Program-made: the position numbers and the translations under genes
The notes under the pieces: generated by a model
Database searches by the model: none
The model's input: the letters and a program-made list of their open reading frames with translations, nothing else
What the model was told of the DNA's origin: nothing
Source of the DNA: Promethearchaeota archaeon
GTDB taxonomy: Archaea; Asgardarchaeota; Hermodarchaeia; Hermodarchaeales; Hermodarchaeaceae
DNA: 64,000 nt
Direction: 5' to 3'
Assembly: GCA_048939245.1 (NCBI GenBank)
Contig: JBHLPR010000003.1
Location: 14,266 to 78,265 of the forward strand
Part shown: positions 7,110-43,109 of the stretch, piece by piece
Layout of the letters: each line of letters opens with the position of its first letter
How positions within the stretch are numbered: the stretch's first letter is position 1

Positions 7110-7499
7110 TCATTTCAGCATTCGCTTCAAACGCTTGGTCATCAAATCGATGATTAATGTAATTGCACCTAACGGAGCATTCCGATCGGCTATCAATGCC
7201 AACACATTGGCTTCGCTGATTCTTCGTACTAGCAAATGCCCTCGTCCACACCGTAGCATCAAATCATTATATTTCCCGATTTTAAGGCTGCTCGCTGTTT
7301 GTTCGGATAGCGCACCAAGTGAAGCTATTGCTGCAGCTAATTCTAATTTCTCTACTTCCCCTTTACCCATAAGCACAATGAGCGGTAATCCGTCAGCTGT
7401 CATGACCGCAGCACTATAAATAAAGGGTTCCCGGCCCACCATTTCCTCTAAATAATTCTCTACTGTCGACATAGCTGAGGCATCGGAAGGTGATTGCAT
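7110..7499 (-). CDS. Roadblock/LC7 (MglB-like) domain protein
   Basis: 129 aa. Matches the Roadblock profile (AAVMTADGLPLIV..., LAAAIASLGAL..., GHLLVRRISEANVLALIADRNAPLG). Confidence 0.7.
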   Translation of the reverse strand: MQSPSDASAMSTVENYLEEMVGREPFIYSAAVMTADGLPLIVLMGKGEVEKLELAAAIASLGALSEQTASSLKIGKYNDLMLRCGRGHLLVRRISEANVLALIADRNAPLGAITLIIDLMTKRLKRMLK

Positions 7500-7655
7500 A
7501 CTTGTCTTCCCTCACTGTGAAGCTTTTAGTGTTTCCCGAAATATAGAACCCCAAAAATAAAGACAAAGATTCTACACCCAATCTTTACATTGTTATTTCA
7601 GTCTGCCAATACTTTTATTAATCACTCTGAATTTTCCTTGTCTACCCGTGCTTAG

Positions 7656-8156
7656 GTGGTTAACTTGTCAGAGAAAGGATCTAAATCCAAGGCGAAAACG
7701 AAGACCGCTAAGAAGTCTAGTGCGAAGGCGAAAACGAAGACCGCTAAGAAGTCTAGTGCGAAGGCGAAAACGAAGACCGCTAAAAAAACAACCAAGACTA
7801 AAAAGACAACTGTCAAAAAAACCAAGAAAAAGCGAAAAACTCAACCACCAACGAAGGCCAAACCCAAAAAGTCCCGCCGATTACCCTTGGAAGCACCGGT
7901 TAAAGGGGTGTTAATGAATTATCAACGTGGAACAGTTACTCAACGACCTCATTATGGGTTAATTCAATTGGAAGGGATAACCTCAGTATCTGACGCTGCT
8001 AAATACATTGGACGGTCCGTTATTCTACATTTCAACGATCAAAAATCCACTCAAGGGCGTATTATTTCTGCACATGGGCGTAATGGAGTGCTCCGAGCTC
8101 GTTTTCGACGTGGTTTAGCTGCTGAAGCGATAGCGAAGGAAGTTTTGGTTTACTAA
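7656..8156 (+). CDS. rpl35ae: ribosomal protein eL33 (L35Ae) with an N-terminal K/A-rich repeat extension
   Basis: C-terminal 85 aa align with eukaryotic/archaeal L35Ae (GRIISAHGRNGVLRARFRRGLAAEAIAKEVLVY versus the canonical [27 protein letters not shown]...). N-terminal about 75 aa is KAKTKTAKKSSA x3 plus a further lysine-rich stretch. Confidence 0.8.
   Translation: MVNLSEKGSKSKAKTKTAKKSSAKAKTKTAKKSSAKAKTKTAKKTTKTKKTTVKKTKKKRKTQPPTKAKPKKSRRLPLEAPVKGVLMNYQRGTVTQRPHYGLIQLEGITSVSDAAKYIGRSVILHFNDQKSTQGRIISAHGRNGVLRARFRRGLAAEAIAKEVLVY
7690..7788 (+). repeat. three perfect or near-perfect 33-bp tandem direct repeats inside the eL33 N-terminal extension
   Basis: aaggcgaaaacgaagaccgctaagaagtctagtgcg repeated twice identically, then a third copy diverging at its end. 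Encodes the repeated KAKTKTAKKSSA peptide. Confidence 0.85.
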
Positions 8157-8239
8157 ACTTTCATTTTCAGTACAAAGAAACCTTTTTTGGTCACTCACCC
8201 CACAAAAGGATATTATTGAAAATGCCTTCTCGAGAGTAG

Positions 8240-8629
8240 GTGCGACGGATGATTGAAAATGAGAATAAGGTGAAGCGCAAGATTCAGCTTAGACCTGTGA
8301 CAGTTAAACACCAAGAAATCTCATTACCTAAAGAAATCATCGAAAAAGCTGAAGCAGCAGAAGCTAAAGAGGCTGTTGAGGAAGAATCAAATCTATCTGC
8401 TGATCAACTCGCGATATTATTCGTCTGCCAACGGGGGCATCAATCATTCATTAGCGTTCTACAAGGGGTAAATAGCACCCGTATTCCCGTGGGTAAAAAA
8501 CCACTCAGAGAAGCTGAGGTTCGCGCCCTCTTAGATGACCTCGAAACACAGGGTTATCTAAAGAAAGCGGAAATACATGACCAACCTACCTGGGCGGCAA
8601 CTGAAAAAGCCCGAGCCTTGGAAACCTGA
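8240..8629 (+). CDS. hypothetical protein, possible DNA-binding (winged-helix-like) protein
   Basis: 129 aa, charged N-terminus. No strong motif. Confidence 0.35.
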   Translation: MRRMIENENKVKRKIQLRPVTVKHQEISLPKEIIEKAEAAEAKEAVEEESNLSADQLAILFVCQRGHQSFISVLQGVNSTRIPVGKKPLREAEVRALLDDLETQGYLKKAEIHDQPTWAATEKARALET

Positions 8630-8720
8630 GTAACATTGTTAATCAAGGCTTTTCAAATTTCTCTAAATGACTATTGTTACTGCTACTAAGGCAGCAATTT
8701 AATAGTCAAGTTCTTGCATC

Positions 8721-8960
8721 CTAAAATTCGGCTGCAATTCGTTCGCCGTAATCGGTCAAGAAGTAAAAAGAGTGATATACTCCTCGACGCTGTTCGACGA
8801 GTCCCGCAGAAAGTAGCCGCTTTAGATGATATGCAGCGGTACTTGGAGGGATATCTAATGCTCTTGCGATATCTCGCAAAAATGTTCGTTGCCCATTTAG
8901 GGTTGTTAAAATTTCTCGACGAGTGCGATGACGTAATACTTTTTCTGTGATCGGAGTCAT
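8721..8960 (-). CDS. winged helix-turn-helix transcriptional regulator (ArsR/Lrp-like HTH)
   Basis: 79 aa: RREILTTLNGQRTFLRDIARALDIPPSTAAYHLKRLLSAGLVEQ is a classic HTH-plus-wing pattern. Confidence 0.55.
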   Translation of the reverse strand: MTPITEKVLRHRTRREILTTLNGQRTFLRDIARALDIPPSTAAYHLKRLLSAGLVEQRRGVYHSFYFLTDYGERIAAEF

Positions 8961-9222
8961 ATTTTCTACCGTCCAGGAATCTCCGCCAACTCGAATGACA
9001 TTTATTTTACGCTCTTAAATATATACTTTGCGGCATAAATACGTACATTACTCGTTATGGGCGTTATATACACTTCATGTCACCTATTCACCAAATCCGG
9101 TTGTGTCCTGATTTGCTATGGCTTAGTGCTGATAAAAACTCATAAGAACAGGAAGGCAGAGTTAAACTAAACATCTTAGTGCACCATGATAGACTTAGAA
9201 ATACCCGCTGGCTGGGGTAGGC

Positions 9223-10195: not shown

Positions 10196-10207
10196 AACTA
10201 GTATTAA

Positions 10208-11866
10208 TTATCGGATAAGTTCGGTTACGGTTCCAATACATCGTGTATTGGCTTCTCGAGTTACAATCCGATCACCGATACGAAGCATCTCAGGTCCTTT
10301 TTTAAAGACCATGCGGACTCTAGCTACATCACCGACAACTAGATACTCTTTATCAAAGATTTTTTCGTAGATAACCGGTTGTTGGATAGTGGAACTATGG
10401 AAGACCGGTTCGTAGCCTGTTCGGATTCGTGTAGGGTGTCGTGTTACGATGATGGTAGAATCGAATGCTTGAATTGCTTTAACATCCGCATCTTTGTCGC
10501 ATATGATTTGCCCACGACGGATTTTTTCTGGGGTAAGGCGTTTGAGATCAAAGCCAAATACATCTCCCGCTTTTACACGTTCAACTCGTTTTTTGAATAC
10601 TTCAATTGAGCCGATTCTCCCTTTCATGAATCGTCCTTCGTTATCAGGACCACATAAAATTGGTTGACCTGGTTTGAAGATTCCTTCTTGCACTGTACCT
10701 GTAATCACCACATTGGTTCCTCGTATTCCTCGATAGACCTTATCGATGTAAGCAAAGGCTGGTCTTTCGATACGTTCATTGGGGATTCGGGAGGGCAGAT
10801 CAACGAGGGTTTTTCGAAGCAGCTCTAATCCATCACCCGTCACACAACTAACTTCAAAAACAGGGACAATTACTTTGTGAGCGATTTCCCGAAAGATGAT
10901 GGAGATATCATCTTCCGATGTGACCCGGAGCGGTACATGCCCAATTTCTTTGATGGTTTCGAATACGAGATTGCGAACATGATTTCGTGTGGATTCATCG
11001 CAATCATCGATTTTGTTTATTACAACTAGGAAAGGCAGCTCTTGGTTTGAAACTAATAATAGGTGCTCTCGAGTGATATCATCTAAACGGAGTATCCCAC
11101 TTCGTTGTTCTTCAGCAATTGCTAGTTTATATTCGTCGAGGGAGGGAACGAGAACCATACTGTATTGTGCTGAAGCACCTAGTACGCTTCTAATCATGGT
11201 TTTGGCATATTCTTTGTGGCCAGGGGCGTCAAAGATTGTTATTATTCGGTGAGCTTGATCTAGAATCCGGGCACGTTTTGACTTGTCCAATGGTGCTTGC
11301 ATAGCGATGAATTTACCTTCTTTGTCTATCGCGGCAAACGTAACATGAAGATCCGCTGTTTGCCCTCTCTTCAATTCTTGGGGATACGTTAGGAGTACTG
11401 CTCTGGCATACCCACTTCCATCATCGAGTTTACCTTGGATCAGAACACCAGCTAGGGTTGTTTTTCCACTGTTTACCCGTCCAACTAAGTTTATACCCAA
11501 TGTTTCGGGAACCATCGGAGTAATAACTCGGGCTAAGGTGAAACTTGTGACAATTCCTTGCTCGGTATTGTAATGTGTTTCTTCTAGAATCTCAATTCCC
11601 GCTTCCTTACATAGAGTTTTGAGGACGGATTTACTGATTTCTACTTCATCGTTTGTGAGTCCATATACTTCCCATTTCTTTCCGTGAAGATCTTCGATTC
11701 CCACGACGAATTGTCCTAGCCCCTCGCTAGTAATTAATTTTAATTGGGCAATCAGTTTTGCCCCACGATCTCCAGCCTTGTCTTTATCAGTTAGTGAACG
11801 TTTAAACTCAGTATTTCGTGTTTCTCCATTCTTTAGAAGTTGTTCGAGATTAAAATCCGATGTCAC
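10208..11866 (-). CDS. EF-Tu-like translational GTPase of the GTPBP1 family
   Basis: 552 aa. G1 GRVNSGKTTL, G3 DAPGH, G4 NKID. N-terminal extension of about 110 aa and C-terminal beta-barrel domains, as in GTPBP1-family proteins. Confidence 0.6.
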   Translation of the reverse strand: MTSDFNLEQLLKNGETRNTEFKRSLTDKDKAGDRGAKLIAQLKLITSEGLGQFVVGIEDLHGKKWEVYGLTNDEVEISKSVLKTLCKEAGIEILEETHYNTEQGIVTSFTLARVITPMVPETLGINLVGRVNSGKTTLAGVLIQGKLDDGSGYARAVLLTYPQELKRGQTADLHVTFAAIDKEGKFIAMQAPLDKSKRARILDQAHRIITIFDAPGHKEYAKTMIRSVLGASAQYSMVLVPSLDEYKLAIAEEQRSGILRLDDITREHLLLVSNQELPFLVVINKIDDCDESTRNHVRNLVFETIKEIGHVPLRVTSEDDISIIFREIAHKVIVPVFEVSCVTGDGLELLRKTLVDLPSRIPNERIERPAFAYIDKVYRGIRGTNVVITGTVQEGIFKPGQPILCGPDNEGRFMKGRIGSIEVFKKRVERVKAGDVFGFDLKRLTPEKIRRGQIICDKDADVKAIQAFDSTIIVTRHPTRIRTGYEPVFHSSTIQQPVIYEKIFDKEYLVVGDVARVRMVFKKGPEMLRIGDRIVTREANTRCIGTVTELIR

Positions 11867-14738: not shown

Positions 14739-16526
14739 ATGGCAAACAAATCAAGTCAAGCATATGCTAACACGAAACTGCTTTGGGTTTCACTCACCAA
14801 ACAAACCACTCAAGAAAAAACCCTTTCGCAGCCTCTTTTCACCCAATTCTTGGGGGGTCGTGGACTTGGAGTTAAAATCGTCTATGATCACGTTACTCCT
14901 GATATCGCACCTCTCGCTCCAGAGAATCTTTTGATATTTGCGATTGGTCCTCTGACGGCGACTGCTGCACCTACTGGAGGACGATTTGCAGTGGTTACAA
15001 AGTCTCCGTTAACTGGAACAATGTTTGATTCGAATTGCGGGGGGCATTTTGGTCCCCAGCTACGTAAAGCGGGATATGCGGGATTAGTCTTAGAGGGGCG
15101 GGCTCAATCACCCACCTATTTATGGATTAATAACGAAACTGTTGAGTTTCGATCAGCTAAAGATATATGGGGTCAGGAGGTCAGTCCCTCCACCGATTAC
15201 CTACTTGATGAAACCGATCAAAAAGCTCAAGTTGCATGCATTGGACCAGCTGGAGAGAACCAAGTCAGGTTAGCTGCCATCATTAATGATAAACATCGTG
15301 CAGCTGGTCGGGGTGGCGTTGGCGCTGTAATGGGTTCCAAGAATTTGAAGGCACTTGTTATTCGTGGTACAAACCAAGTTTCAATTACAAATCCTGAACA
15401 GCTTGATCTGGTTGTAAATCGTTTACGGCGGCTTATCAAGAAGGATTCCGTCACGAACAAATCCCTCCCCGTTTATGGAACTGCGGTCTTGGTCAATCTA
15501 ATAAACGAATATGGAATGCTACCAACATACAACTTTCAGGAGGGCACCTTCAATGATGCTGAGGGGGTTTCAGGGGAAAAACTGTTAGAACGGTTCTTTG
15601 TTAAGAGGTATCATTGTTTTGGTTGCCCAATAGGTTGCGGTCGAATCACTGAAGTTCGTGGTGAAACAATTGGTGGTCCTGAATATGAAACAATTTGGGC
15701 ATTAGGGCCTGAATGTGGTATCAACGATCTTGAATGGATTACAACCGCCAATCATCGATGCAATGAGCTTGGGATGGACACCATCTCAGTGGGAAGCACA
15801 ATTGGTTGTGCAATGGAACTTGCTAAGACTGGTAACCTTAAAGCTGAATTAAAATTCGGTAAAACGAAGGGATTACTTGAACTCGTTGAGGATACTGCTT
15901 ATGCTCGGGGTTTGGGGGCAGAAATTGGACAAGGATCTAAAATTTTAGCTACAAGATACAACGCTCCGGATTTAGCTATGCAAGTGAAAGGGCTAGAACT
16001 TCCGGCTTATGATCCAAGAGGAGTTCAAGGACACGCATTGGCCTATGCTACTTCTAATCGTGGCGGCTGCCATCTACGGGCATACTTAATTGGCCCAGAA
16101 ATTCTCGGGTCTCCTGTTCTTGTTGATCGCGACCGAATTGATGGGAAAGCTGAACTCGTTATTCTATTTCAGAATCTATCGGCAGCTATGGATTCCTTAG
16201 TCCTTTGCCGATTTACCACCTTTGCCTTCAGCGTCGAAGACTATGCAGACTTAATTAGTGCAGCCACCTCCTTGACGGTGACCGGAAAAGACTTTCTCCA
16301 AATTGGGGAAAGGATTTGGAACTTGGAACGGTTGTTTAATCTCCGTGAAGGATTTACTGCTGAAGATGACTGCCTCCCTCCACGATTTTCCAGTCCATTA
16401 CCTGAGGGAGGTTCTCGAAACCGGATAGCTCATTTAGACAAAATGCTTCCTAAATACTATAAACTTCGAGGCTGGGACACTAAAGGGCAACCAGAAAAAT
16501 CGCGTCTAAACCAGCTTGAGCTCTAG
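14739..16526 (+). CDS. aor: tungsten-containing aldehyde:ferredoxin oxidoreductase (AOR family)
   Basis: 595 aa. AOR N-domain, 4Fe-4S cysteine motif CFGCPIGCGR, pterin-binding domain motifs. GGAGG RBS 8 nt upstream. 11-bp gap after deoC. Confidence 0.85.
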   Translation: MANKSSQAYANTKLLWVSLTKQTTQEKTLSQPLFTQFLGGRGLGVKIVYDHVTPDIAPLAPENLLIFAIGPLTATAAPTGGRFAVVTKSPLTGTMFDSNCGGHFGPQLRKAGYAGLVLEGRAQSPTYLWINNETVEFRSAKDIWGQEVSPSTDYLLDETDQKAQVACIGPAGENQVRLAAIINDKHRAAGRGGVGAVMGSKNLKALVIRGTNQVSITNPEQLDLVVNRLRRLIKKDSVTNKSLPVYGTAVLVNLINEYGMLPTYNFQEGTFNDAEGVSGEKLLERFFVKRYHCFGCPIGCGRITEVRGETIGGPEYETIWALGPECGINDLEWITTANHRCNELGMDTISVGSTIGCAMELAKTGNLKAELKFGKTKGLLELVEDTAYARGLGAEIGQGSKILATRYNAPDLAMQVKGLELPAYDPRGVQGHALAYATSNRGGCHLRAYLIGPEILGSPVLVDRDRIDGKAELVILFQNLSAAMDSLVLCRFTTFAFSVEDYADLISAATSLTVTGKDFLQIGERIWNLERLFNLREGFTAEDDCLPPRFSSPLPEGGSRNRIAHLDKMLPKYYKLRGWDTKGQPEKSRLNQLEL

Positions 16527-17188: not shown

Positions 17189-20100
17189 TTAAGCAATCTC
17201 TATGTTCATAGTAATTGTATCTGGCAATCTGTTGGTTAAGTTCAGCTCATAGATTAGAATTCCTTTTGCTTCTCGATGTTCTGCAACAACAGGCAATCGA
17301 GGCAATTCAACCTGTGCTCCCGGAATTTGAATCATCACAGCTTCAGGGTCTTGTGAAAGTGCGTCGACTCCTAAAATTTGTAGTGTTACTGTTGCAGCCA
17401 AATCCTCAGTAGTGATTAACCAGAATCCAATAGACACATTGTTTTCACTAGGCTTTTGGAGTGTGAGCCAACTTTGAATTTTATCGCCTTTGTAGGTGCT
17501 GCATAAAATTGGGGTTATTTCGTACCAAATAAGATCAGTAGGTTTTGTTGATGGACGAAGATTAGAGAAAGTGCGCGTTTTCATCTGTATTTGTCCGTCA
17601 ATGGAGATTTCGGGTTCAATTTGGAGGCTGATTCGAAACTGTTCATCAGCTAGAGTAAAACTTGTTTCAGCGTCCTCGAGTCGAAAACCAGAATCGAGGA
17701 TAGACTCGTCACCCAGTTGGAAAGCCCATTGCCGTTCTAATTGTGTCGCTAACTGGGCTTGTTCTTTCGAACCGATTTGACTTGCCTCACGAAGTAGTTC
17801 GGTTAATTGTCGTCGAACCGAATCAAGCTTGTCTTTGCCTTGAGCTAGACTTGTAAATGTCAAAGGAACTTGGGTGTTCAATATCCTTGAAGCTTGTAAC
17901 CGAGTAGCGGCTTCAGTTACGTCGATACTTTCTAAGGCTTCGATTCCCTCTTGATAGACTAGATCCCATTCTTTGAAAATAAGAATTTGTGTGGATAGCG
18001 TCGGATTTGTTCTTAGGCGTGTCTGCATTAATTGGTTGTATTGAGATAATGCCGCTTCGATTGTGATGGGGTTCTCTTCCTTTGCTGCTGCTTTGAGTGC
18101 TTTTTCAATTTGGGTTGTTGCTCTTCGTAATAGGCGGTGTTGGGCACCTGCAGATGTTGACAGAGTTGCCAGTTTTGCTGTGGCGCTTCCTGCGGCACTT
18201 AAAGCCAGAATTTCATTGTGTGTATCACCTTGGGCTGCAGCAGCTTTCGCTAGTGTCTGAGCAAGGTTTTCGCTTTTTGTCAATAGGGTTTCCCATTGTG
18301 AATCTTCTGCTGGGTGTTCATCATGAACTAGGGCGTTGATATTTCGCAGTAATAGGAATGCAAAGGGATACGTTGTTTTCGTTATCTTGTCAACGGCAGG
18401 CATAAACGTGAGGGTCTGCTCCACAAACTCTTGTGCGTCTTTTTTCAATTTATATGCGTCTTGAACATCAGTTACCTTTGATATACGCTGGAGAAGAATC
18501 CAAATTAGAAGCGATCCAGCTTTCAAAGCCTTTGCTTGATGTCGTCCTTTTACCTGTGCCACCATTGCCGTGGTTGCATAATCTTCCAATTTATCCAGAT
18601 CCTTTGTGGGAAAGGATGCACTAATTTTTCCTGAGGAATCTGGCGTTACAGTTGAAATTAAGAGCTGCAAGGCTAATTGTGCACGTATTTTGGGGTCTTT
18701 GGTTTGAAAATAGAGGTGTTCGTTAAGTTGATTACTTCGTTCCATCAGCAGGTGTGCTGACTCACTTATGGTTGCAACTGGTCTCTGTGAGAGTTGTTGG
18801 GTTATCTTCGATACAACCTCAAGATCTTGGTCGTTGATTTTGGTCGATGGGGAAATCTCTGGAATCAATTGAGTTGCGTATTTCGCTGCCGTGCTTAGAA
18901 GGCTATCCTTCTCTGCGTCAGGGGCCGCTTCAGTAAGGCGGAGTATGGCTTTTATCAATTCACGGTGAATTGCCAGGGAAGCTTCAGGTTCCGTATTAAG
19001 TTGTTGCAATTGATTAAGTGCGATTTGTTGGAATTTCACATGTAATTTTGCCAACACATAACGAGCTTCAGAGGCTTCAATTTTTGGCATTAATCTGGCG
19101 AGAAGTCTGTCCAGCTGCTTTGACATGCGAAGAATGAGATTTTGGTCTATGGGACGATCCAATAAGGGTATTGTGCTGATGAGTGTTTTGAGTGTGCCCG
19201 TGGTCGCTTCTTCAAGGATTTCTGGTGAGTCTGAAGAAATCTCGCCAGTTAAGCGGAGAATATAGTCAAGCTGTTTGACAGCTCTGGCTATATCATCAAG
19301 TGCCCGATAATTGAATACCGCGGTGCGTGCAAATCGTAGACTTCGTAATAGATCATCTCCGAACGCTTTATCCGATTTTCCCTGTGCCATTTCAAACCAG
19401 AGTGTGCTTGCCCGTGTTGCCAATTTCGCGGTTGAGTAGGCATCTCGAAGTTCAATTGCTGCGTTCATTGCAGTCGTTAGATGCTTAAGCTGTGACTGAC
19501 GCAGTTTCTGGGTTGACATGGTTTGGTGTAGGCGATCTTTCAAATGCTGTTCGCTGATGTCCAAAACCTTCAGATCATCAATCGATTGAAGCGCTGTTAC
19601 GATGATCTTTCCTGTTTCTCTCCCTCTGTCCTCCATTATCTTATGAAGGGCTTTCCAATTTCTTGTGAGTTTACGTAATAGGGCAATTTGTTTTGTGGGG
19701 TCATCCTCTTGTGTGAATTCATTGATTGTGTCTTTGGCTTTGGCTGTCTGGTAGGCAAGAAGTGAGTTTCGCTGAAACTTTTCAGCAAATTCAATGATTT
19801 GCTCTAATTCCGCTTTCATTGTGGTTTCAGGAATAATGAGAAGGCGGTGTAATAGTATTTGTAAGACTGTTTCTATTGTTGAGGCATTCGTATCTTCTAG
19901 GGTTTCCAGAATCGTGGCTATTGCTGAAGCTTCAAGCGCAATTAACTCTTTTCGGAAATCTCCGTCTGGGACAATCCCTAAAAGCCAATGGCTTTTCCAT
20001 AGAAGTTCTACGGGTTCGACTTTGCGTTTAGCTGTGATATCTGCCAAAGTGCTTTCTAGGTGGTGTCGACCAAAATAGCGCGTTTCAAGGGCCTCATGAA

Positions 20101-22935: not shown

Positions 22936-22974
22936 AGTTCCACCACAATTTCTCTCTGTTCCTTTAATCTAATC

Positions 22975-29883: not shown

Positions 29884-30471
29884 GTGCGGTCAATCTCACA
29901 AAATCCTGAAAATTCCAACTCCCCGAATGTGGTAGCTGCAGAGAAAGCAGGCTTCGTTGTGAAAGTAATTATAGTGGGGGATTGGGGTGTGGGAAAAACG
30001 AGTCTTATTCGAAGATTTGCTGAAAACAAGTTCGACCATGACTACAAACCCAGCATCGGCGTTAACATCGTCACCAAAGTTGTCGATGTAGCTGGAAGAA
30101 AATTAAAACTGCAACTATTCGATACAGGTGGACAAGAACGCTTTCAATCCCTTCGACAAAGGTATTACAAAGGGGCAAACGCAGTCATATTCGTCTTTGA
30201 CATAACAAGGCCTTCATCAGCATCAGCGATTGAATCCAAATGGTTAGATGAGGTGAAATCAATTCTCGGTGAAGATTTTGTACGGGTGGTTTTAGCGAAT
30301 AAAACGGATTTAGAATCTGGCCGAGCCGTATCTGAATATGCCGCTCAACAAGCCACTGATCGAATTCAAGGCAAGTATTATGAAACCAGTGCCTTAGATG
30401 GCCGGAATGTCACCGAGGCATTTTCTGAATTAGCTGCCGAATTAATGGAAAAACTCTTTCCGGAGGTATAA
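29884..30471 (+). CDS. Ras-superfamily small GTPase (Rab/Ras-like)
   Basis: G1 GDWGVGKTSL, switch II/G3 DTGGQERF, G4 NKTDL, G5 ETSAL. About 170-aa G-domain. N-terminal about 25 aa uncertain (true start may be internal). Confidence 0.8.
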   Translation: MRSISQNPENSNSPNVVAAEKAGFVVKVIIVGDWGVGKTSLIRRFAENKFDHDYKPSIGVNIVTKVVDVAGRKLKLQLFDTGGQERFQSLRQRYYKGANAVIFVFDITRPSSASAIESKWLDEVKSILGEDFVRVVLANKTDLESGRAVSEYAAQQATDRIQGKYYETSALDGRNVTEAFSELAAELMEKLFPEV

Positions 30472-30475
30472 CTCT

Positions 30476-31699
30476 TTGAAATCCCGAATTTCGGAGATAG
30501 GTGAAGAATATATCCAACTAGCCTTTCAAGTCGATTATTTCCTCAAAAACCAGATTGGAGAGGACACTATAATTGTCGATAGTTATTTTGGTCCACCCGA
30601 ACTCAAACCCGAAATACACACTGTGGACCCAGATCTCTTACTAAAATCAATCCATCAGCTCCGCGAAAAAATCAAAAAACGAATAAAAGAACATCCGCAA
30701 AGAACCTATCTGATTAAACAATTAGATGCTCTAGCCCTTCTTGTGAAATATGGTCTTAATGAAAAGGTCACCTTCAGCGAAAGAGTAAAGACGGGATTAG
30801 ACGTCGATGTCGTCGTTATTTCAAATGAACGCATCGATGAGCTAAATGAACAGGCATATCGCGCCCTTCGAAAAGAGGTCCTGAAAGGGGACCTTACTAC
30901 CATGGCGACCAGCTGGCGAAGACGAGCAATGACGACAGGCGCTGAGATTGTTCCTCTTGCACAGGATGTGGCAGCAGAGGCTAGACAAGCCACAGAACAA
31001 GTTCTTTTCAAACTACCTAGAGAAGAAGCGGTCGAGTTTCATGCAGTGCCCACCGCTCCGTGGAGCGCTTATAACTATTATAAGGGAAATTATAAGGCAA
31101 TTATTGAAATTAATATCGAGTTACCACGGAGCAAATACACTATTTGGAAATGGGTAACCCACGAAACCTATCCAGGGCATCAAACCCAATTAGTCCAGCG
31201 AGAAGCAGGTTTTCATAAAGACTTACATAATCTCGAAGCAACGATTGCAATAATTAATACTCCTGAATGCACCATAGCTGAAGGATTAGCTGAAGCTGGC
31301 TCAGATCTCCTAAGTACAGCTCGTCCACTGACAAAACCTGAAACGGTTTCATCCTATCTGTTACAACTTCGACGAGCCGTAGGTATCAATGCATTGGTAA
31401 TGCTTCAGGAAAAACAAACTAGTGAATCCGAAGTTGTGGAATACATCAAAGATCTTGGAGCTTATGAAGAAGATTATGCAAAGGCTCGAATACCCTTCAT
31501 GACGGATCCAATGTGGGCTCCCTATGGATACACCTACCTTATCGGAGCCTGGTTAGTACGTGGTTTCTTCAAAGCTGCGCAAGAAGCTCACCTCATTGAT
31601 GAATTCATCAAAGCCCTCTATTTGGAAGTCCACACTCCTTCAACACTCAAATCACGGATTTCCAAACTTGAATTAAAACTACCCAAGCAAATCATCTAA
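30476..31699 (+). CDS. hypothetical protein with a DUF885-like HExxPGHxxQ motif (putative metallo-hydrolase)
   Basis: 407 aa. WVTHETYPGHQTQLV resembles the conserved motif of the DUF885 family. Starts 4 bp after the GTPase stop (likely operon). Confidence 0.4.
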   Translation: MKSRISEIGEEYIQLAFQVDYFLKNQIGEDTIIVDSYFGPPELKPEIHTVDPDLLLKSIHQLREKIKKRIKEHPQRTYLIKQLDALALLVKYGLNEKVTFSERVKTGLDVDVVVISNERIDELNEQAYRALRKEVLKGDLTTMATSWRRRAMTTGAEIVPLAQDVAAEARQATEQVLFKLPREEAVEFHAVPTAPWSAYNYYKGNYKAIIEINIELPRSKYTIWKWVTHETYPGHQTQLVQREAGFHKDLHNLEATIAIINTPECTIAEGLAEAGSDLLSTARPLTKPETVSSYLLQLRRAVGINALVMLQEKQTSESEVVEYIKDLGAYEEDYAKARIPFMTDPMWAPYGYTYLIGAWLVRGFFKAAQEAHLIDEFIKALYLEVHTPSTLKSRISKLELKLPKQII

Positions 31700-36027: not shown

Positions 36028-36819
36028 ATGGCGGATAAATTTGTTTTATTGCTCGAGTTTTCTTCGGGAATCATCGAACCCCTTCCCCTTTCGGTTGGAG
36101 CCCTCACAGAAGATCGAATTGTGATAGTGATTGATGAAATCAAAGAACGTGTCTGGTTATGGCAAGGGACTACAACCACTCTTGTCGAACGCCGAGCAGC
36201 ACAACGTAAAGCACGCTCGCTTGTCAGTGCGGGATACCAACTTGGTCCATATCGAATTGGACGGGATGTAACCGATATCGAAATTATCGATGGTGATATT
36301 CTTGATGACCCTGAAATAAAAGGGTACTACGACCAATTAGTTCATACTCTAAGCCAAAATTTTAAAATCACCGAAGGTGTCCTTGGCAGGTTCAGTGGAA
36401 CCCTCTCTCCTGCTCCACAACCAACAGAAGGCGTGTCTGCGCCAACACCGAAACCCGCATCAACACCTACACCCATAGAAAAAAGTGTTCCAGCTCAAGA
36501 AGAGGTAATAAAAGTCGCTCCTGCTGCATCAACGACGGAAGTTGTTGCTCCGAAGCCGACTCGTGAATTACAGGATCTTGGGGTGATTCGGGTCGGAATT
36601 CTCATCTCTTCCATTCTCGACTTCTTCCCCATGTGTTATGTTAGTGCCACTAAAATCGAGGATGGTACACGCTATTCAATAGAAGACCCTGAAGGCATCA
36701 TCTGTCAAATTGAAGTGGCTAACGGTTCGGTTCATTTTCTCCAACGGTATGATTTTCGTGGAAGGCGCAAAGACATTCTTGGGATGCTCCGTGACCGATT
36801 AGCTGCCGCAGATCTTTAG
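36028..36819 (+). CDS. gelsolin-like domain protein (single N-terminal gelsolin domain + P/T/A-rich linker + unknown C-domain)
   Basis: RIVIVIDEIKERVWLWQGTTTTLVERRAAQRKARSLVSAGYQLG fits the gelsolin-repeat signature. Linker PAPQPTEGVSAPTPKPASTPTP. Confidence 0.5.
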   Translation: MADKFVLLLEFSSGIIEPLPLSVGALTEDRIVIVIDEIKERVWLWQGTTTTLVERRAAQRKARSLVSAGYQLGPYRIGRDVTDIEIIDGDILDDPEIKGYYDQLVHTLSQNFKITEGVLGRFSGTLSPAPQPTEGVSAPTPKPASTPTPIEKSVPAQEEVIKVAPAASTTEVVAPKPTRELQDLGVIRVGILISSILDFFPMCYVSATKIEDGTRYSIEDPEGIICQIEVANGSVHFLQRYDFRGRRKDILGMLRDRLAAADL

Positions 36820-36926: not shown

Positions 36927-37766
36927 TTGACACAAAATACACTCTGCAGGTACCGAGCTAGTAATTCGGGGGTCAAAATTCCTCAAAGTAAGCAGCGCTT
37001 CGAACCCTTTTGGGTCAATCGGGATGTTATAAACATGACACGAATTATAATGTTGGAAATTGGAGGTCTAGGCTTTGTTCGATCTATTCGTCCTGGAGCT
37101 CGGAAGCTCCAGGGTGATGTCTGTGTCGCAGTGGTAGATGAACAAAATAAAGCCCTTTGGTTTTGGATGGGGAGCGGTGTTCAATACGATAAACGCCGGA
37201 CAGCGAAGGCAAAAGCTGAACAAATCACTTCGGAAGGGCATCGAATCGGGGATGAACATCTAGCTCGTGGATATACTCTTGTTCCCATAGACCAAGATAA
37301 GCTCGAGGACCCCACAACCTCCAATAACTACAATAACCTTATTGCACTCCTTGAAGCACCAATGGAAATCAATACGGTTGCTAATCCTAAAGGAACGCTA
37401 ATCATAGGGCAACTTCAAGTAGGTATTTCATCTGCTCCTGTATCCACAAGTACTCAAGCGCCTGCAGAAACTGCTCCCTCTCAAGTAAGTATTACTCCAG
37501 GGAAACCTGCTGTTCCAGCCACCACTAAAAAAACCACTAAATTAGATTTGGAAGCCGCTTTGATGGCTGTTATTCGTGTTCATCAACAGGTGCACATCGA
37601 GTATAAAAGCAAGGATGATACTGAAGAAATTACCATCGAAGGTATTGATGGGCTTACTCACAAAATGAAACGGAGCAAAGGAAAACTCACCTTCAAATGG
37701 GATTCAAAAACTCCGAAAGAGCTCAAACAATTGGTTGCCCATGAGCTCAAACGCATCGCAGGCTAA
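36927..37766 (+). CDS. gelsolin-like domain protein, paralog of 36028-36819
   Basis: VCVAVVDEQNKALWFWMGSGVQYDKRRTAKAKAEQITSEGHRIG. Similar S/T/A/P-rich linker and C-terminal domain. True start likely an internal Met (about 37036). Confidence 0.5.
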   Translation: MTQNTLCRYRASNSGVKIPQSKQRFEPFWVNRDVINMTRIIMLEIGGLGFVRSIRPGARKLQGDVCVAVVDEQNKALWFWMGSGVQYDKRRTAKAKAEQITSEGHRIGDEHLARGYTLVPIDQDKLEDPTTSNNYNNLIALLEAPMEINTVANPKGTLIIGQLQVGISSAPVSTSTQAPAETAPSQVSITPGKPAVPATTKKTTKLDLEAALMAVIRVHQQVHIEYKSKDDTEEITIEGIDGLTHKMKRSKGKLTFKWDSKTPKELKQLVAHELKRIAG

Positions 37767-37793: not shown

Positions 37794-38366
37794 ATGAGCT
37801 CTCTTCTTTTTGCCTTGCTATTAATTGCTTCATATTCCCTCGTCGGGGGAGCTATCAAAGTACTGGACCAACTAACAGATCATCCAGAATCTTATCAAAG
37901 TCGCCACATCTATCTGTGGTTGCTAACAGTTATTCTAGTTATTCTAGTCAATATCTGTGTCTTCCTTGATGTCTATACTGCTGTCCTAGCAATTGGAGTA
38001 ATCTTAGGATTAATTGTGACACACAAAGTCGATAACAGATATTTCGTCGTTTTAACAATCACCATATTACCTCTAAGTATACTTCGGGTCTTAGGATTCG
38101 CATTTACTTCGTTCATTCTCCTAACTCTCCTCGCAGTTTTTATTGCCTCACTCTTTGATGAATTATTACACGAAAAAGCATCAAAGGTTTCAACCACTGC
38201 CTTACACACTCTTCTAACGTATCGCCCTATCTTGAAAATCTTGGTGTTAATCCTTCCTTTCTGGAATTTATTAACCTTCATTCACACTTTAGGATTCTGG
38301 GGGTTTGATTTTGCATATGAATTGGTTGCATACTACTTTCGCGCCTCTTCCCTTCCAGAAGCTTAA
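37794..38366 (+). CDS. polytopic membrane protein (about 5-6 TM), unknown function
   Basis: 190 aa hydrophobic ORF directly downstream of the gelsolin-like pair. Confidence 0.4.
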   Translation: MSSLLFALLLIASYSLVGGAIKVLDQLTDHPESYQSRHIYLWLLTVILVILVNICVFLDVYTAVLAIGVILGLIVTHKVDNRYFVVLTITILPLSILRVLGFAFTSFILLTLLAVFIASLFDELLHEKASKVSTTALHTLLTYRPILKILVLILPFWNLLTFIHTLGFWGFDFAYELVAYYFRASSLPEA

Positions 38367-38726: not shown

Positions 38727-40133
38727 TCAACCGAGAATGAACCGTTGACCAATTCTAGGGGCTATTGCAGGGCATCTAAGAAGACCTTTGGCAGTATTTG
38801 CTAGACTCTTACAGGCTCCAGGACTCCCATGAATACAAAACACGGTTTGTGGAGGATTTCGCCGAAGGGAAGCAAGAAATTCCTTTAATTCATTCTTATC
38901 CGCGTGAGCTGAAAACCCGTACAAACGTTCAACTTGCGTCTTTACCCTTTTTTTGCGTCCATATATTGTTACAGTTCTAGCACCGCGAACTATCTGCTGA
39001 CCCAGAGTTCTAGGGGCTTGAAAGCCGATTACCAGTAAGTGGGTGTTTTTGTTTTCGATGCGACGATAAAGGTGCCTAAGGATGCGTCCTCCGTTCATCA
39101 TTCCCGAACCTGCAACAATCATGATTGGTCCTTGTTGCTGGCTAAGCTGGTCGCTTTCATATTGGCGTTCCACAAACTGGAGACCTTTAAACTCCAGAGG
39201 GGCGTCACCAGATTGTATCAAATCCCAGGTTTCTTCATCAAAACATTCTCTATGGTGTGTGAAAATCTCTGTGGCCCTAATAGCTAAGGGGGAATCAATA
39301 GCAACTGGAATAACTGGGACACGAGCATTTTCTACAAGTAAGTTGAGTGCATAGATGAGCGCTTGGGTCCGGCCAATAGCAAAAGCGGGAACCAAAATGT
39401 GGCTTCGATGACGATACGCTTTTACAATAATTCGCTCAAAACGTCTAATGGTTTTTGAAAAAGGTTCATGAGTACGATTAGCATATGTCGATTCGCATAG
39501 AAGGTAGGTCGCACTATCAGGAAAATCCGGATCTCGAATTATTGGTGCATTCTTCCGTCCAATATCTCCCGAATCAACAAGATGGATAATTTTTCCTCGC
39601 TCTTCTGCCCACACTTCAATAATGGATGATCCCAGTATGTGTCCGGCATCTCGAAATCGGAGCGTCACATTTCCTGGAAGACTCTTCTTTTCACCATATT
39701 TCAGAATACGCAATTTGTTGATAGTTCGTTCTACATCTCGAATTGTAAATAATGGCTCAATTGAAGGATGATGGTTGCTCTTCGACTCGCTCTGATGAAT
39801 TCTGGCTCTGGCAGCATCTTCTTCCTCGCTTTCTGCAACATCTTGAAGAAGCATTGAGCAAAGCTCCGCGGTCGCTGCAGTCACATAGATCGGTCCTTGA
39901 AAACCTAATCGAACAAGAATTGGTAAGCGACCGCAATGATCGAGGTGTGCATGGGATAGAATTACAAAATCAATTTCAGATGGATCGAATTCAAAGGAAC
40001 TGTTCCGTTGGTATTGTTTTGCTGGGTTACCTTGGAAGAGTCCACAATCAATAAGAAACGAAGTTGATTTTGTCTTAATGTGGTAAAGACTCCCAGTTAC
40101 AGTCTGTCCAGCCCCATGAATCACTAGTTCCAA
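38727..40133 (-). CDS. beta-CASP ribonuclease of the metallo-beta-lactamase fold (aCPSF/RNase J-like)
   Basis: ILSHAHLDHCGRLP (HxHxDH), later D and H metal ligands, C-terminal beta-CASP/RMMBL pattern. 468 aa. Confidence 0.75.
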   Translation of the reverse strand: MELVIHGAGQTVTGSLYHIKTKSTSFLIDCGLFQGNPAKQYQRNSSFEFDPSEIDFVILSHAHLDHCGRLPILVRLGFQGPIYVTAATAELCSMLLQDVAESEEEDAARARIHQSESKSNHHPSIEPLFTIRDVERTINKLRILKYGEKKSLPGNVTLRFRDAGHILGSSIIEVWAEERGKIIHLVDSGDIGRKNAPIIRDPDFPDSATYLLCESTYANRTHEPFSKTIRRFERIIVKAYRHRSHILVPAFAIGRTQALIYALNLLVENARVPVIPVAIDSPLAIRATEIFTHHRECFDEETWDLIQSGDAPLEFKGLQFVERQYESDQLSQQQGPIMIVAGSGMMNGGRILRHLYRRIENKNTHLLVIGFQAPRTLGQQIVRGARTVTIYGRKKRVKTQVERLYGFSAHADKNELKEFLASLRRNPPQTVFCIHGSPGACKSLANTAKGLLRCPAIAPRIGQRFILG

Positions 40134-40175
40134 GATATCTGGCTCCTCTCAGGTGTAGTAGATAGTACTGAGAAA

Positions 40176-41129
40176 TTAGCCAAAAAGGTCAAACTCAGAG
40201 GATCCACCATTGTTGCCATTCTCTTCTTCATTATCCACAGCTTCTTCCCTTTCTTCTTGTTCTTCTTCTTTGGTCTCATCATTTTCTTTGGGAGGATTCT
40301 GGCTAATCTTGGATAGTTGTTCACGCATGGATTCCATCACAGAAACCGGTTTGTCCTCAGTGGAAGGAGTAACCCCCCTTTCCAGCTGAGTGGATGCAAT
40401 GAATATCTGTCCTTCCGCTGCCAGTTGAGGTTGTTGACCGAAGCATCGAGAAAACGCCTCGATATCTTCTTGAGCTTCTGCTCGAATCTCTGAGAAAAGG
40501 ATAGCATCTCCTTGACAGAAAAACCGCATTTGTAAACGTATAACTGAAACCTGAAATTCATTGGGGCCAATTGGGTTCATAGTGGCCTGTCCGTAACAGT
40601 CAGCTACAGCGAAAAGAACCTTAGTTGCTAGTTGTTCCTCATAGGTTAGTATCCGGCGACGAATTGGAGTTACTTTCCGCACAGGTTCAGGCATAATTGT
40701 CTGCTCAATAACCTCAACCTTATCTTTGAAGGCTTCTTCAAATGTTGATATCTTCTCTTCTTCTTTAACAACAACCAGATACTCTGAAGTCTTCTGATGG
40801 GTATCAAGAAGCTTCTGAAGAAGAGTGGCTTTTGGGCTTTTTAGTTCCCCCGGAACTTCAATGAAGGTCGTACATTTTGTGCCAAAGTGCGTGTCTTCGA
40901 CACGGGTTCCATTCTTCATTATAAATCGCGCTTGACGAAGAGCTGTTGTACGTTGTAGCATTGAAGTTCCTCGTCCGAGCCACACCCAAACGATACCCTC
41001 TGGTTCATCGACAATAAGGATAGATCTTCCATCGACGAGGTGGTTAGGATTCCAGTGGAGCGCTTGCATTTCGCCTCCTTCACCTAGGATTTCAATCATC
41101 CCAATGAATTGTTTCATTTCTCGTATCAC
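40176..41129 (-). CDS. gelsolin-like domain protein with acidic C-terminal tail
   Basis: SILIVDEPEGIVWVWLGRGTSMLQRTTALRQARFIM gelsolin-like signature. C-terminal EEEQEEREEAVDNEEENGNNGGSSEFDLFG. Confidence 0.5.
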   Translation of the reverse strand: MIREMKQFIGMIEILGEGGEMQALHWNPNHLVDGRSILIVDEPEGIVWVWLGRGTSMLQRTTALRQARFIMKNGTRVEDTHFGTKCTTFIEVPGELKSPKATLLQKLLDTHQKTSEYLVVVKEEEKISTFEEAFKDKVEVIEQTIMPEPVRKVTPIRRRILTYEEQLATKVLFAVADCYGQATMNPIGPNEFQVSVIRLQMRFFCQGDAILFSEIRAEAQEDIEAFSRCFGQQPQLAAEGQIFIASTQLERGVTPSTEDKPVSVMESMREQLSKISQNPPKENDETKEEEQEEREEAVDNEEENGNNGGSSEFDLFG

Positions 41130-41214
41130 CGGAAGAAAATATCACGCTTATGCAGCCACACATGGTGAACCTTCACTACATATCAGGGAACGAGGTCTAT
41201 AAGAAATTGTTGTG

Positions 41215-42504
41215 TCACGCTTTTTTCTTTCGAACCTCAGCAAGGATTTCTTGGGCTCGATCAAATCGAACACGTTTTTCAGCAATCATCTGCTTTGCAA
41301 CTTGGTCAACTTCTTCACCCGCGGCTCCGGCTGCTACTGCCACATTTCGGGCATGAAGTTTCATGTGTCCAGTTTGAATTCCTTCTTGACTTAGCGCTCG
41401 TAAAGCCGCAAGGTTTTGTGCTAATCCCACACTAGCAATAATCTGTGCGAGTTCAGTTGCTTTTTTCACACCTAATATTTTTACACAAAGCTTGGCTATT
41501 GGGTGGGTTCTGGTCGCTCCACCCACTAATCCAACTGCCATTGGCAACTCGATGGTTCCCCGTAAATCACCTTCTGGCGTTTTATTGTACTGGGTAAGCG
41601 ATTGATAACCTCCCTCTCGTGTTGCGGCGTAGGTATGGGCTCCCGCTTCAATAGCTCGGAAATCTTGACCAGTGGATAACAAGACGGCATCGATTCCATT
41701 CATGATGCCCTTATTATGAGTGGCACATCTGTAGGGGTCAGCCTGGGCAAAAGCGTAAGCCTTCAGGATCCCATCAACCCCCTTCGAACCGCCAAGAGTC
41801 TTGGCGGGGAATATTGCTTCGGCTTTCGCAAGTCGATAGACGGCTAGATTGGACAAAATTCGAAGGTAGACCTTCCCCTTTGTGAGCTCCTCGATTATGG
41901 GCGCTAATGCTTCACACATCGTATTCACTGCATTTGCCCCCATCGCGTCGCGCGTATCAACCAATAGATGAATAATAAGCATAGGGCCCATCATCGATTC
42001 CAAAGTTCGTAACTGTAAATCCAGTGCGCCTCCCCCAAATTTCACTAAGATAGGATCTTGTCTATTTGCCACCATTAACAAATTCTCTTTCTGTTTAAGA
42101 ATCGCTTGTTTAGCAACTTTCACATCGGGTAAGTCGGCGACTTGGATTTGTCCTATCATCACTGGATCCGTGGTTCTTGCTGTAAATCCTCCAGTTTTAC
42201 GCGCCATTCGTGCAGCATTTGATGCTGCCGCAACAACGGATGGTTCTTCCAATGCCATTGGTATGAGGTAGTCTTTTCCATTTATCTGGAAATTTGTCGC
42301 TATGCCCAAGGGAAACGCGTAGGAACCCACTACGTTCTCAATCATCCGATCAGCGGTAGCTGCGTCTAGGCCACCAAAGGCCTTTAACAGAGCCACTTCC
42401 TCATCCGAAAGATCTGCAAAGGTACGAAGCTTTTCAAGCCGTTCTTGGATGGAGAGACGGTAGAATCCACTAATAGCGGAGGTTTTTTTTGACACGATAT
42501 TCAC
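41215..42504 (-). CDS. hmgA: HMG-CoA reductase, class II
   Basis: ENVVGSYAFPLGIATNFQINGKDYLIPMALEEPSVVAAASNAA closely parallels the class II (P. mevalonii-type) ENVIG...NFQING...EEPS block. DAMGAN present. 429 aa. Confidence 0.85.
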   Translation of the reverse strand: MNIVSKKTSAISGFYRLSIQERLEKLRTFADLSDEEVALLKAFGGLDAATADRMIENVVGSYAFPLGIATNFQINGKDYLIPMALEEPSVVAAASNAARMARKTGGFTARTTDPVMIGQIQVADLPDVKVAKQAILKQKENLLMVANRQDPILVKFGGGALDLQLRTLESMMGPMLIIHLLVDTRDAMGANAVNTMCEALAPIIEELTKGKVYLRILSNLAVYRLAKAEAIFPAKTLGGSKGVDGILKAYAFAQADPYRCATHNKGIMNGIDAVLLSTGQDFRAIEAGAHTYAATREGGYQSLTQYNKTPEGDLRGTIELPMAVGLVGGATRTHPIAKLCVKILGVKKATELAQIIASVGLAQNLAALRALSQEGIQTGHMKLHARNVAVAAGAAGEEVDQVAKQMIAEKRVRFDRAQEILAEVRKKKA

Positions 42505-42599
42505 TTCATCGTGTCTCTGCTATGGGTTGACTTATCAAACTTTCTTCCTGTGCTACAGAATCAACTTATTCAGAGAATGTCGATGAACGAGAAAGGTTT

Positions 42600-43109
42600 C
42601 TATTTTTCTCGGAGTTCCCAAATACAAGAATCTGCGCCCCAGGTTTTGCACTGAACCTCTTCGCATTCACTACTAAACCCGCGGAGTGTGAGTACGTGTT
42701 GAAATACACCACTTAGAATATTGCAATACTTCAATCCATCAAATTCCTCAGACATCCGAATATTTTGACAGATTGGGCAGTCTTTGAAGATGTAGACGAT
42801 TTTCCTTTCGGCTTCATCATAATATGCCTCATCGAAGGCTCTGCCCAACATTACTCGCGTTGCAAGGGTAAAGGTATCAAGGAAACCATCAAAGGTAGTG
42901 GCATGCTGGCCAATAGTATCGCTATATTCAAATAGTAAAGTCTCAGCCATGGCATTGCCTAAGCGTAGTAGCTTCTCATTTGCGAGGTTAACGTCGCCTT
43001 TAGTCGTAAGCAAAATGTCGTCAATCACTGCTGCAACCAAAGCTTGGAATGCATTAAGTGAGGTTTTTTCCATCTTAAAATGCCAACCGATCCAACCTTT
43101 GACACCCAT
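42600..43109 (-). CDS. V4R-domain protein (Bet3/TRAPP-like fold)
   Basis: C-terminal ...DCPICQNIRMSEEF...YCNILSGVFQHVL...CKTWGADSCIWEL matches the V4R cysteine pattern (C..C ... C..G.d.C.fe.). Confidence 0.5.
   Translation of the reverse strand: MGVKGWIGWHFKMEKTSLNAFQALVAAVIDDILLTTKGDVNLANEKLLRLGNAMAETLLFEYSDTIGQHATTFDGFLDTFTLATRVMLGRAFDEAYYDEAERKIVYIFKDCPICQNIRMSEEFDGLKYCNILSGVFQHVLTLRGFSSECEEVQCKTWGADSCIWELREK

Follow-up and report, generated by a model that had tools for sequence, protein, structure and literature searches.

The 64-kb stretch of DNA analysed here, called the window in what follows (coordinates are counted from its first letter), encodes a Rab-like small GTPase, a Roadblock/LC7 protein, a TRAPPC3/Bet3-like protein and three gelsolin-like proteins, designated Gel1, Gel2 and Gel3. 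Such a gathering of eukaryotic signature proteins (ESPs) raises the question of whether these genes form a dedicated trafficking and cytoskeleton module, whether they owe their presence to spurious gene calls or faulty binning, or whether they simply reflect the chromosome in which they lie. It also raises the question of what the Gel proteins are, as they pass unseen by Pfam. The reading favoured here, to which a probability of roughly 0.85 is assigned, is that the window is an unremarkable part of the chromosome of an Asgard archaeon (kingdom Promethearchaeati) of Hermodarchaeia-like affiliation, with the ESPs lying among archaeal housekeeping and metabolic genes.

Exact sequences of seven out of ten window proteins tested, spread from 1.9 kb to 59 kb, were found in a public protein collection. 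Six of the seven lie on a single GenBank contig of 81,894 bp (consecutive accessions MFX1575747...MFX1575800) described as "MAG: Promethearchaeota archaeon", that is, a metagenome-assembled genome (MAG). The seventh corresponds to the xylulokinase open reading frame (ORF), a shorter cluster mate of which is present on the same contig, and two SRA-derived assemblies likewise contain Gel1 in identical form. In addition, a scan of species-representative genomes retrieved 18 syntenic loci, which constitute the sample for all statements on gene order made below. The 27-47 kb block of the window is collinear with these 18 MAG loci at protein identities of 41-90%, the shared order being methionyl-tRNA synthetase (MetRS), Rab-like GTPase, a conserved 407-aa protein (unk407), arginase, polyprenyl synthase, DUF7121 protein, M24 peptidase, Gel1, Gel2, a membrane protein, a beta-CASP gene, Gel3, HMG-CoA reductase (HMGR), the TRAPPC3-like protein, a winged helix-turn-helix protein and LarA. 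Most loci are labelled Hermodarchaeota, the others bearing a generic Promethearchaeota label or, singly, a Thorarchaeota or Odinarchaeota one. The presence of exact window proteins on a Promethearchaeota MAG contig, together with synteny to mostly Hermodarchaeota loci, indicates an Asgard origin, and the nearest relatives of the window are MAGs labelled Hermodarchaeota. The initial annotation, made from the letters alone, had proposed an Asgard archaeon, which is borne out by the exact proteins, by the gene order of 18 genomes and by the named homologs of the ribosomal protein eL33 described below. The homologs that carry names, of ESP and housekeeping genes alike, are all Asgard. The GC content is even across the window (0.39-0.47), the coding density is high, and no tRNA gene was found in the 64 kb.

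The question of what the Gel proteins are concerns the following three genes:

36028-36819, plus strand: Gel1, 263 aa, characterised by an AlphaFold (AF2) model, Foldseek and homologs; gelsolin domain at residues 1-125 (36028-36402), linker at residues 126-180, domain X at residues 181-263 (36568-36816).
37035-37766, plus strand: Gel2, 243 aa; N-terminal gelsolin domain, Ser/Thr/Pro/Ala linker and a C-terminal region weakly like domain X of Gel1.
40176-41129, minus strand: Gel3, 317 aa; N-terminal gelsolin domain (about 40755-41117), an unrelated middle part and a conserved tail (40179-40370).

The three are paralogs according to BLASTP (Gel1 against Gel2, 7e-17; Gel1 against Gel3, 3e-8). None gave a Pfam match (E <= 0.01; PF00626 not passed) or an NCBIfam match, and in single-sequence searches of the PDB the top match was a gelsolin-family protein for two of the three ORFs, with non-significant E-values of 0.1-1.2; the best match of Gel3 was villin, at E 0.096. 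Because of these null and non-significant results, the assignment was sought with profiles and structure. A word-seeded database search with a profile of the N-terminal domain returned three fragments only and was uninformative. For Gel1, 68 homologs with full-length alignments were obtained, the named ones all from Asgard MAGs and none with a precomputed Pfam domain. In the AF2 model of Gel1, for which 25 homologs served as input, two domains are predicted with confidence (pLDDT, the model's own confidence score, of about 90) and a disordered Pro-rich linker separates them. When this model was compared with the PDB by Foldseek, the top match was the Thorarchaeota gelsolin ProGel (7c2f_B; target-normalised TM score 0.73, 84 of 88 columns), and the best 50 matches were without exception of the gelsolin fold, in which a long and a short helix enclose a central mixed beta-sheet (gelsolin, villin, adseverin, severin, fragmin, CapG, Asgard 2DGels and the gelsolin-like domain of Sec23). 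The fold evidence thus comes from Gel1, the membership of Gel2 and Gel3 resting on their homology to it.

The profile searches point in the same direction. A profile of Gel1 homologs alone ranked the Heimdallarchaeota 2DGel, the Lokiarchaeota 2DGel and ProGel first to third in the PDB (E 0.013-1.2), and a profile spanning the paralogs matched villin at 2.3e-7, Loki 2DGel at 1.3e-6, gelsolin at 4e-4 and adseverin at 7.6e-4, with 28 of its 29 PDB matches falling in the gelsolin superfamily. Among 25 Gel1 homologs the residues D36, W45 and G47 do not vary; across the three paralog groups (21 sequences) W43, W45 and G47 are invariant and D36 is kept in at least 90%, so that a WxWxG core is common to all of them. 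The D...WxG signature is one by which gelsolin domains are recognised (PMC7444086, PMC9433394). When 1.84 billion representative proteins were searched exhaustively with HMMER, 128 clusters were obtained at E <= 1e-3, 92 of them at E <= 1e-10. Family members are almost all 200-330 aa long, with the profile match at the extreme N-terminus, and those that carry names come from Hod-, Odin-, Hel- and Lokiarchaeal and "Asgardarchaeia" MAGs, all labelled hypothetical. The tail of the significant matches consists of long proteins with several matched stretches; all ten that were tested (E 6e-6 to 1e-3) carry three to six copies of PF00626, and the villin headpiece is present in three of these ten multi-repeat gelsolins or villins.

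Fold, profile matches, signature and this reach to eukaryotic gelsolin and villin together indicate that the N-terminal domains of Gel1-3 are genuine but divergent gelsolin domains. The failure of the gelsolin candidates in Pfam could have been counted as refuting the call, a view that is not upheld because the family profile and the structure model both support gelsolin; the missing PF00626 match reflects insufficient sensitivity of that model and counts for less than the evidence from profile and fold. Taken on their sequences, Gel1-3 are part of an Asgard-wide clade with one N-terminal gelsolin domain plus an extension, which Pfam does not see. The initial annotation had already proposed three gelsolin-like proteins, and the Gel1 fold model, the family profile and the pattern of conservation uphold all three; only the start it gave for Gel2 (36927) had to be moved, to 37035, where the orthologs begin at the corresponding Met (MTR...) and from which gene callers obtain 243 aa.

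With ProGel (7c2f), the 2DGels (7c2g, 7whf, 7whg) and the PF00626 repeats, the Gel domains have the fold in common. The core pattern shared with ProGel, the 2DGels and the eukaryotic repeats may be written hhhD-x6-(W/Y)-x-W-x-G...(E)...A and spans the central strands and the long helix. The difference lies in the architecture: Gel1-3 combine one domain with an unrelated extension, whereas ProGel is one bare domain, 2DGel has two, and eukaryotic gelsolins and villins have three to six. Within Gel1, D29 and E54 are invariant and occupy what we take to be the positions of the type II Ca2+ ligands (the Asp of strand B and the Glu at the start of the long helix). E54 is aligned to a Glu of domain 2 of the Heimdall 2DGel, and the same column holds Lys in Gel2 and Gln in Gel3, which hints at a different regulation of these two paralogs.

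The extensions are where the three proteins part company. Domain X of Gel1 (residues 181-263), modelled alone, forms a compact alpha-beta4-alpha sandwich with a pLDDT of 92. The C-terminal parts of Gel1 and Gel2 could be aligned by hhalign at E 0.018 over 28 columns. A domain X common to all three paralogs is not upheld as a demonstrated feature, given this marginal alignment and the lack of any for the C-terminal part of Gel3. The Gel1 linker (36403-36567, plus strand) contains 22% Pro, with a PPP run in 42 of 60 parsed homologs, and could serve as a poly-proline ligand site. The tail of Gel3 (40179-40370, minus strand) is kept in 12 orthologs as an amphipathic SV(V/M)(D/E)SMR(E/Q)QLS(Q/K)(I/L) segment followed by a variable acidic run. 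It closes, at the extreme C-terminus of the orthologs, on (S/D)(D/E)(F/Y)(D/E)(L/W)F-x, the window protein itself ending in ...SSEFDLFG. This tail, which occurs in one of 125 representatives of the wider family, looks like a docking peptide; its end resembles the C-terminus of the ribosomal P-stalk (F-G-L-F-D) and, loosely, a WCA region.

It was also suggested from the letters that this architecture resembles the 1DGelX type of Thorarchaeota, in which a single gelsolin domain is followed by an unknown domain X and several members are found per genome (PMC7444086, PMC9433394), for example two in MKD1 and three in Loki GC14_75 (PMC9433394). The resemblance stands for the architecture and is not supported for orthology. 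Common to both are the one N-terminal gelsolin domain, the D...WxG signature, a non-gelsolin C-terminal extension, the restriction to Asgard archaea and the presence of several paralogs per genome. The characterised 1DGelX of Thorarchaeota SMTZ1-83 has a gelsolin domain 35% identical to ProGel and a domain X predicted to be a coiled coil (Akil et al. 2020, PNAS; PMC7444086). On that published description the two are set apart, Gel1 being about 18% identical to ProGel and its domain X globular (alpha-beta4-alpha), while the C-terminal parts of Gel1-3 are dissimilar even among themselves. Furthermore, none of Gel1-3 gave a BLASTP match at E <= 10 to a 50-residue fragment of ProGel, to which most other family representatives did match. 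Among the Asgard proteins that the family profile picks up there are also some whose linker is charged and whose C-terminus is helical and heptad-like, as described for the published 1DGelX. Gel1-3 are therefore best described as new members of the class with a single gelsolin domain plus extension, carrying different extensions.

In the window and throughout the lineage (the 18 syntenic loci), Gel1, Gel2 and a membrane protein follow one another on one strand and face Gel3 on the other. The genes associated with this cluster, and a second beta-CASP gene elsewhere in the window, are:

37794-38366, plus strand: membrane protein, 190 aa, hydrophobic and apparently multi-pass by sequence reading, starting 28 bp past Gel2.
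38727-40133, minus strand: beta-CASP/metallo-beta-lactamase RNase-type gene, between the membrane protein and Gel3.
61676-62989, minus strand: a second beta-CASP/metallo-beta-lactamase RNase-type gene.

The membrane protein has no Pfam or NCBIfam match and is nevertheless the next gene after Gel2 in all 13 loci that reach past Gel2, at identities of 39-57%. The beta-CASP gene is missing from the deepest loci (L013-L015, with Gel1 at 41-45% identity), in which the genes for Gel1, Gel2, the membrane protein and Gel3 directly adjoin one another; the polyprenyl synthase gene is absent from L013, L014 and L017.

The remaining ESPs, all proposed in the initial annotation, and the gene coupled to the GTPase are:

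29884-30471, plus strand: Rab-like small GTPase, 195 aa (Pfam Ras; PDB; GenBank name "Rab family GTPase").
30476-31699, plus strand: unk407, the conserved 407-aa protein, starting 4 bp past the GTPase and without a family match.
7110-7499, minus strand: Roadblock/LC7 protein, 129 aa, single domain (Pfam Robl_LC7; PDB).
42600-43109, minus strand: TRAPPC3/Bet3-like protein of V4R fold, 169 aa (PDB 7yh2/7yh3 and 6aq3).
7656-8156, plus strand: ribosomal protein eL33 (Pfam L35Ae).

The call of a Rab/Ras-like GTPase is secure: the protein scores 165 bits against Pfam Ras (cut-off 21.6), its best 60 matches in the PDB are Rabs without exception, and the canonical G1-G5 motifs can be read in its translation (GDWGVGKT, DTGGQE, NKTD, ETSA). 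Among eukaryotic Rabs it is nearest to Rab1, Rab14, Rab30 and Rab43. No C-terminal Cys prenylation motif of the kind found in eukaryotic Rabs is present, the protein ending in ...ELMEKLFPEV without any Cys; Asgard GTPases usually lack prenylation Cys residues. The GTPase differs from other Asgard Rab-like GTPases (Klinger 2016; Tran et al. 2024) in being paired with unk407 and not with a Roadblock or longin protein. The two genes adjoin in all syntenic loci that span the region and are probably co-transcribed, and unk407 may represent a lineage-specific partner of the GTPase. It has no match in Pfam, NCBIfam or the PDB, and its consideration as a candidate GTPase-activating protein or guanine nucleotide exchange factor accordingly found no supporting evidence. 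A HETYPGH motif can be read in unk407.

The Roadblock/LC7 assignment likewise holds, with 25.7 bits against Robl_LC7 (gathering score 23) and PDB matches to Roadblock/LC7 chains at E 3e-6 and 4e-6, besides 7yh1 at 1.5e-3; the protein is single-domain, as are other Asgard Roadblock/LC7 proteins. For the third candidate, initially called a V4R/Bet3-fold protein, the claim is confirmed and can be refined to TRAPPC3/Bet3-like. The Pfam V4R score of 21.7 remains under the cut-off of 31, yet Thorarchaeota TRAPPC3 is matched at E 3.9e-9 (7yh2, residues 28-167) and 6.9e-9 (7yh3) and eukaryotic TRAPPC3 (6aq3) at 1.4e-3, so that the window protein is nearer to the Thorarchaeota TRAPPC3 than to the Pfam V4R model. 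The match to the former (7yh2/7yh3, PMC10933270) is full-length with low sequence identity, and four Cys of the window protein (DC-x2-CQ, YC, DSCIW) are aligned with the four Cys of the matched region of the Thorarchaeota protein, which binds Zn through four Cys (Tran et al. 2024, PMC10933270). Checking the named candidates against Pfam thus succeeded for the GTPase, Roadblock, eL33 and the housekeeping genes, and failed for the V4R protein, which stayed below the cut-off, and for the gelsolins, which gave no match.

The ribosomal protein eL33 had been described as bearing an H1-like tail, and of this description both the family and the composition hold, the word tail being the part that does not. 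Pfam L35Ae is matched at 65 bits over residues 82-165. Residues 1-86 (7656-7913), upstream of the canonical core start at Met87 (7914), form a Lys/Ala/Thr/Ser-rich repeat extension, (AKTKTAKKSSAK)x3, which resembles a histone H1 tail in composition but is N-terminal. The 40 homologs are 113-218 aa long, those with names bearing Hermodarchaeota, Promethearchaeota and Thorarchaeota labels. All 15 homologs inspected have an N-terminal extension of 35-140 aa with 31-41% Lys plus Arg, and the junction with the core is conserved (KKKRK...PRRLPLExPVKGVLMNYQRG). Such comparable extensions and the conserved junction show that the extension is real and lineage-wide.

The archaeal housekeeping and metabolic genes among which these ESPs lie were also recognised correctly at the outset, as confirmed by Pfam and NCBIfam:

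3133-5478, minus strand: class III (anaerobic) ribonucleotide reductase NrdD (Pfam NRDD 494 bits; TIGR02487 503 bits; exact match MFX1575749.1).
14739-16526, plus strand: aldehyde:ferredoxin oxidoreductase, AOR (Pfam AFOR_N and AFOR_C; exact match MFX1575761.1).
27401-29125, minus strand: MetRS (Pfam tRNA-synt_1g, 454 bits).
41215-42504, minus strand: class II HMGR (Pfam 381 bits; NCBIfam TIGR00532 471 bits, cut-off 260).
53470-54801, plus strand: thiolase-like protein (Pfam Thiolase_C_1).
54805-55449, plus strand: DUF35/ChsH2-type OB-fold protein (Pfam zf-ChsH2 and OB_ChsH2_C).

A PAC2 gene was confirmed as well. MetRS is 82-89% identical to its counterparts in three of the syntenic MAG loci (L006, L012 and L016). 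The model matched by HMGR, TIGR00532, is described as "hydroxymethylglutaryl-CoA reductase, degradative", and the class I model TIGR00533 was not reached; the gene sits between those of Gel3 and the TRAPPC3-like protein in a co-directional string with spacers of 42-95 bp.

As regards function, actin biochemistry has been published for gelsolins of Thor- and Lokiarchaeota (PMC7444086, PMC9433394). ProGel and 2DGel bind actin in crystal complexes, the characterised Asgard members with a single domain plus extension sever and nucleate actin, and the extensions have been proposed to diversify the activity of 1DGelX (PMC7444086). By analogy, the gelsolin domains of the Gel proteins would engage actin in the cleft separating its subdomains 1 and 3 and influence how filaments assemble and disassemble, in the manner of ProGel, 1DGelX and 2DGel. 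The differing C-terminal parts would in turn give each paralog a distinct activity or partner, the candidates being the globular domain X in Gel1 and possibly in Gel2, and the acidic tail with its F-D-L-F docking motif in Gel3.

Several observations weigh against the reading of the window as an ordinary Asgard chromosome with actin-regulating gelsolins. The lineage call is based on labels assigned by the submitters of MAGs and on synteny, and a few syntenic MAGs bear Thor or Odin labels. To the Pfam and NCBIfam nulls is added that a weak PF00626 match was obtained for only 8 of 109 family representatives. Domain X of Gel1 has no significant structural neighbour in the PDB (the best being the N-domain of spermine synthase, E 0.18), and the C-terminal part of Gel3 matches neither that of Gel1 nor that of Gel2 by hhalign, meaning that domain X is not demonstrably present in Gel3. 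Gel1 being only about 18% identical to ProGel, actin binding is a far-reaching extrapolation. Some domains of gelsolin fold, such as that of Sec23 among the fold matches, are not known to bind actin, and the window contains no actin, profilin or Arp gene. The first of these points, with the non-significant single-sequence matches, could be taken to mean that the gelsolin calls arose by chance in spurious ORFs, or that the contig is mis-binned or chimeric and derives from a non-Asgard organism. This hardly credible explanation is already effectively refuted, as up to 18 independent genomes retain the Gel1-3 ORFs at full length, the structure model gives a confident result specific for gelsolin, profile E-values go down to 1e-7, the named homologs are all Asgard and the GC content is even. 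It is conceivable, on the other hand, that the Rab, TRAPPC3, Roadblock and gelsolin proteins constitute one co-regulated trafficking and cytoskeleton module. The order from MetRS to LarA, which includes the Rab, Gel1-3 and TRAPPC3-like genes, is indeed kept even where Gel1 identity falls to 41-45%, and the TRAPPC3-like, HMGR and Gel3 genes share a closely spaced co-directional string. However, the genes in question lie on both strands, interleaved with those for arginase, polyprenyl synthase, M24 peptidase, HMGR and the beta-CASP protein, the Roadblock gene is 22 kb away from that of the GTPase, and the synteny corresponds to a general collinearity within one class that is not specific to ESPs, the loci without the beta-CASP or polyprenyl synthase gene having retained the rest. 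Since housekeeping neighbours are as well conserved in order as the eukaryote-like genes, a functional ESP island is improbable. The apparent density of ESPs is explained by the general richness of Asgard genomes plus one local cluster, that of the Gel genes, because the housekeeping genes are equally syntenic, both strands are used and metabolic genes are interleaved. In other words, the eukaryote-like genes of the window are not one operon or one machine, and their co-occurrence results mainly from Asgard ESP richness.

A different doubt concerns what the gelsolin fold does in Gel1-3, where it could be a protein-protein interaction module like the gelsolin-like domain of Sec23/24, acting in a membrane-associated complex with the co-located membrane protein or as an adaptor through the Gel3 docking motif. 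The low identity to characterised Asgard gelsolins, the insensitivity of Pfam to the family and the presence of Sec23 domains among the fold matches would all suit such a role, as would the conserved membrane protein 28 bp past Gel2 and a conserved terminal linear motif of a type typical of docking peptides. The Glu shared with domain 2 of the Heimdall 2DGel is, moreover, confined to Gel1. Against this, it is to actin-binding gelsolins, to villins and to the Asgard ProGel and 2DGel proteins, not to Sec23, that sequence and fold match best. The D...WxG signature of actin-binding gelsolin domains is intact (PMC9433394), and the characterised Asgard relatives of the same architecture act on actin (PMC7444086). 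A role apart from actin is consequently considered rather unlikely, although it is the leading alternative. Actin regulation might also take a more elaborate form, in which the Gel cluster would be a lineage-specific multi-part system combining one divergent gelsolin domain with different effector modules: Gel1 could attract profilin-actin with its Pro-rich linker and oligomerise through its orphan alpha-beta4-alpha domain, Gel2 would be linked to the membrane protein, and the Gel3 tail could be a docking peptide of WCA or P-stalk type that recruits an Arp-like protein or a GTPase. This scheme is a long shot; if true, it would mean that modular factors for nucleation promotion or severing had a prokaryotic precursor.

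Some further genes of the window complete the picture:

10208-11866, minus strand: GTPBP1-family translational GTPase, 552 aa, with an N-terminal extension of about 124 residues (PDB).
17189-20284, minus strand: ORF of 1031 aa without a family match.
22099-23796, minus strand: tandem paralogous ORFs of 278 and 273 aa.
24291-26615, plus strand: protein of 774 aa beside the tandem ORFs.

The assignment of the translational GTPase, which the initial annotation had not made, relies on its PDB match to GTPBP1 (9ypg, E 2e-62, residues 31-551), aEF1A (2e-22) and SelB being far weaker. The 1031-aa ORF has no Pfam or NCBIfam match; by eye it looks mostly helical with a different C-terminal region, and the strongest AT skew of the window (-0.20) is found there. 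Both tandem ORFs are hydrophobic at either end, with a segment at the N-terminus and an anchor at the C-terminus, and the 774-aa protein combines a metzincin-type HEIGHALGLNH motif with a hydrophobic C-terminal segment. To judge from these features, all three are probably surface proteins.

In summary, the window mostly confirms the known picture of Asgard genomes as dense in eukaryote-signature genes. Its contig is already public, and its ESP set is as expected for the lineage and not a new kind of thing. The gelsolin-domain clade that is invisible to Pfam constitutes a new detail, modest but usable. Asgard-wide and comprising 128 representative clusters annotated as hypothetical, it implies that PF00626-based counts put the number of Asgard actin regulators too low, because such counts do not see it. 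In the Hermodarchaeia-like genomes examined, the clade is represented by a conserved cluster of three paralogs with distinct C-terminal modules, among them an orphan domain and a terminal linear motif, and these modules provide concrete constructs for the study of how extensions diversify gelsolin function before eukaryogenesis.

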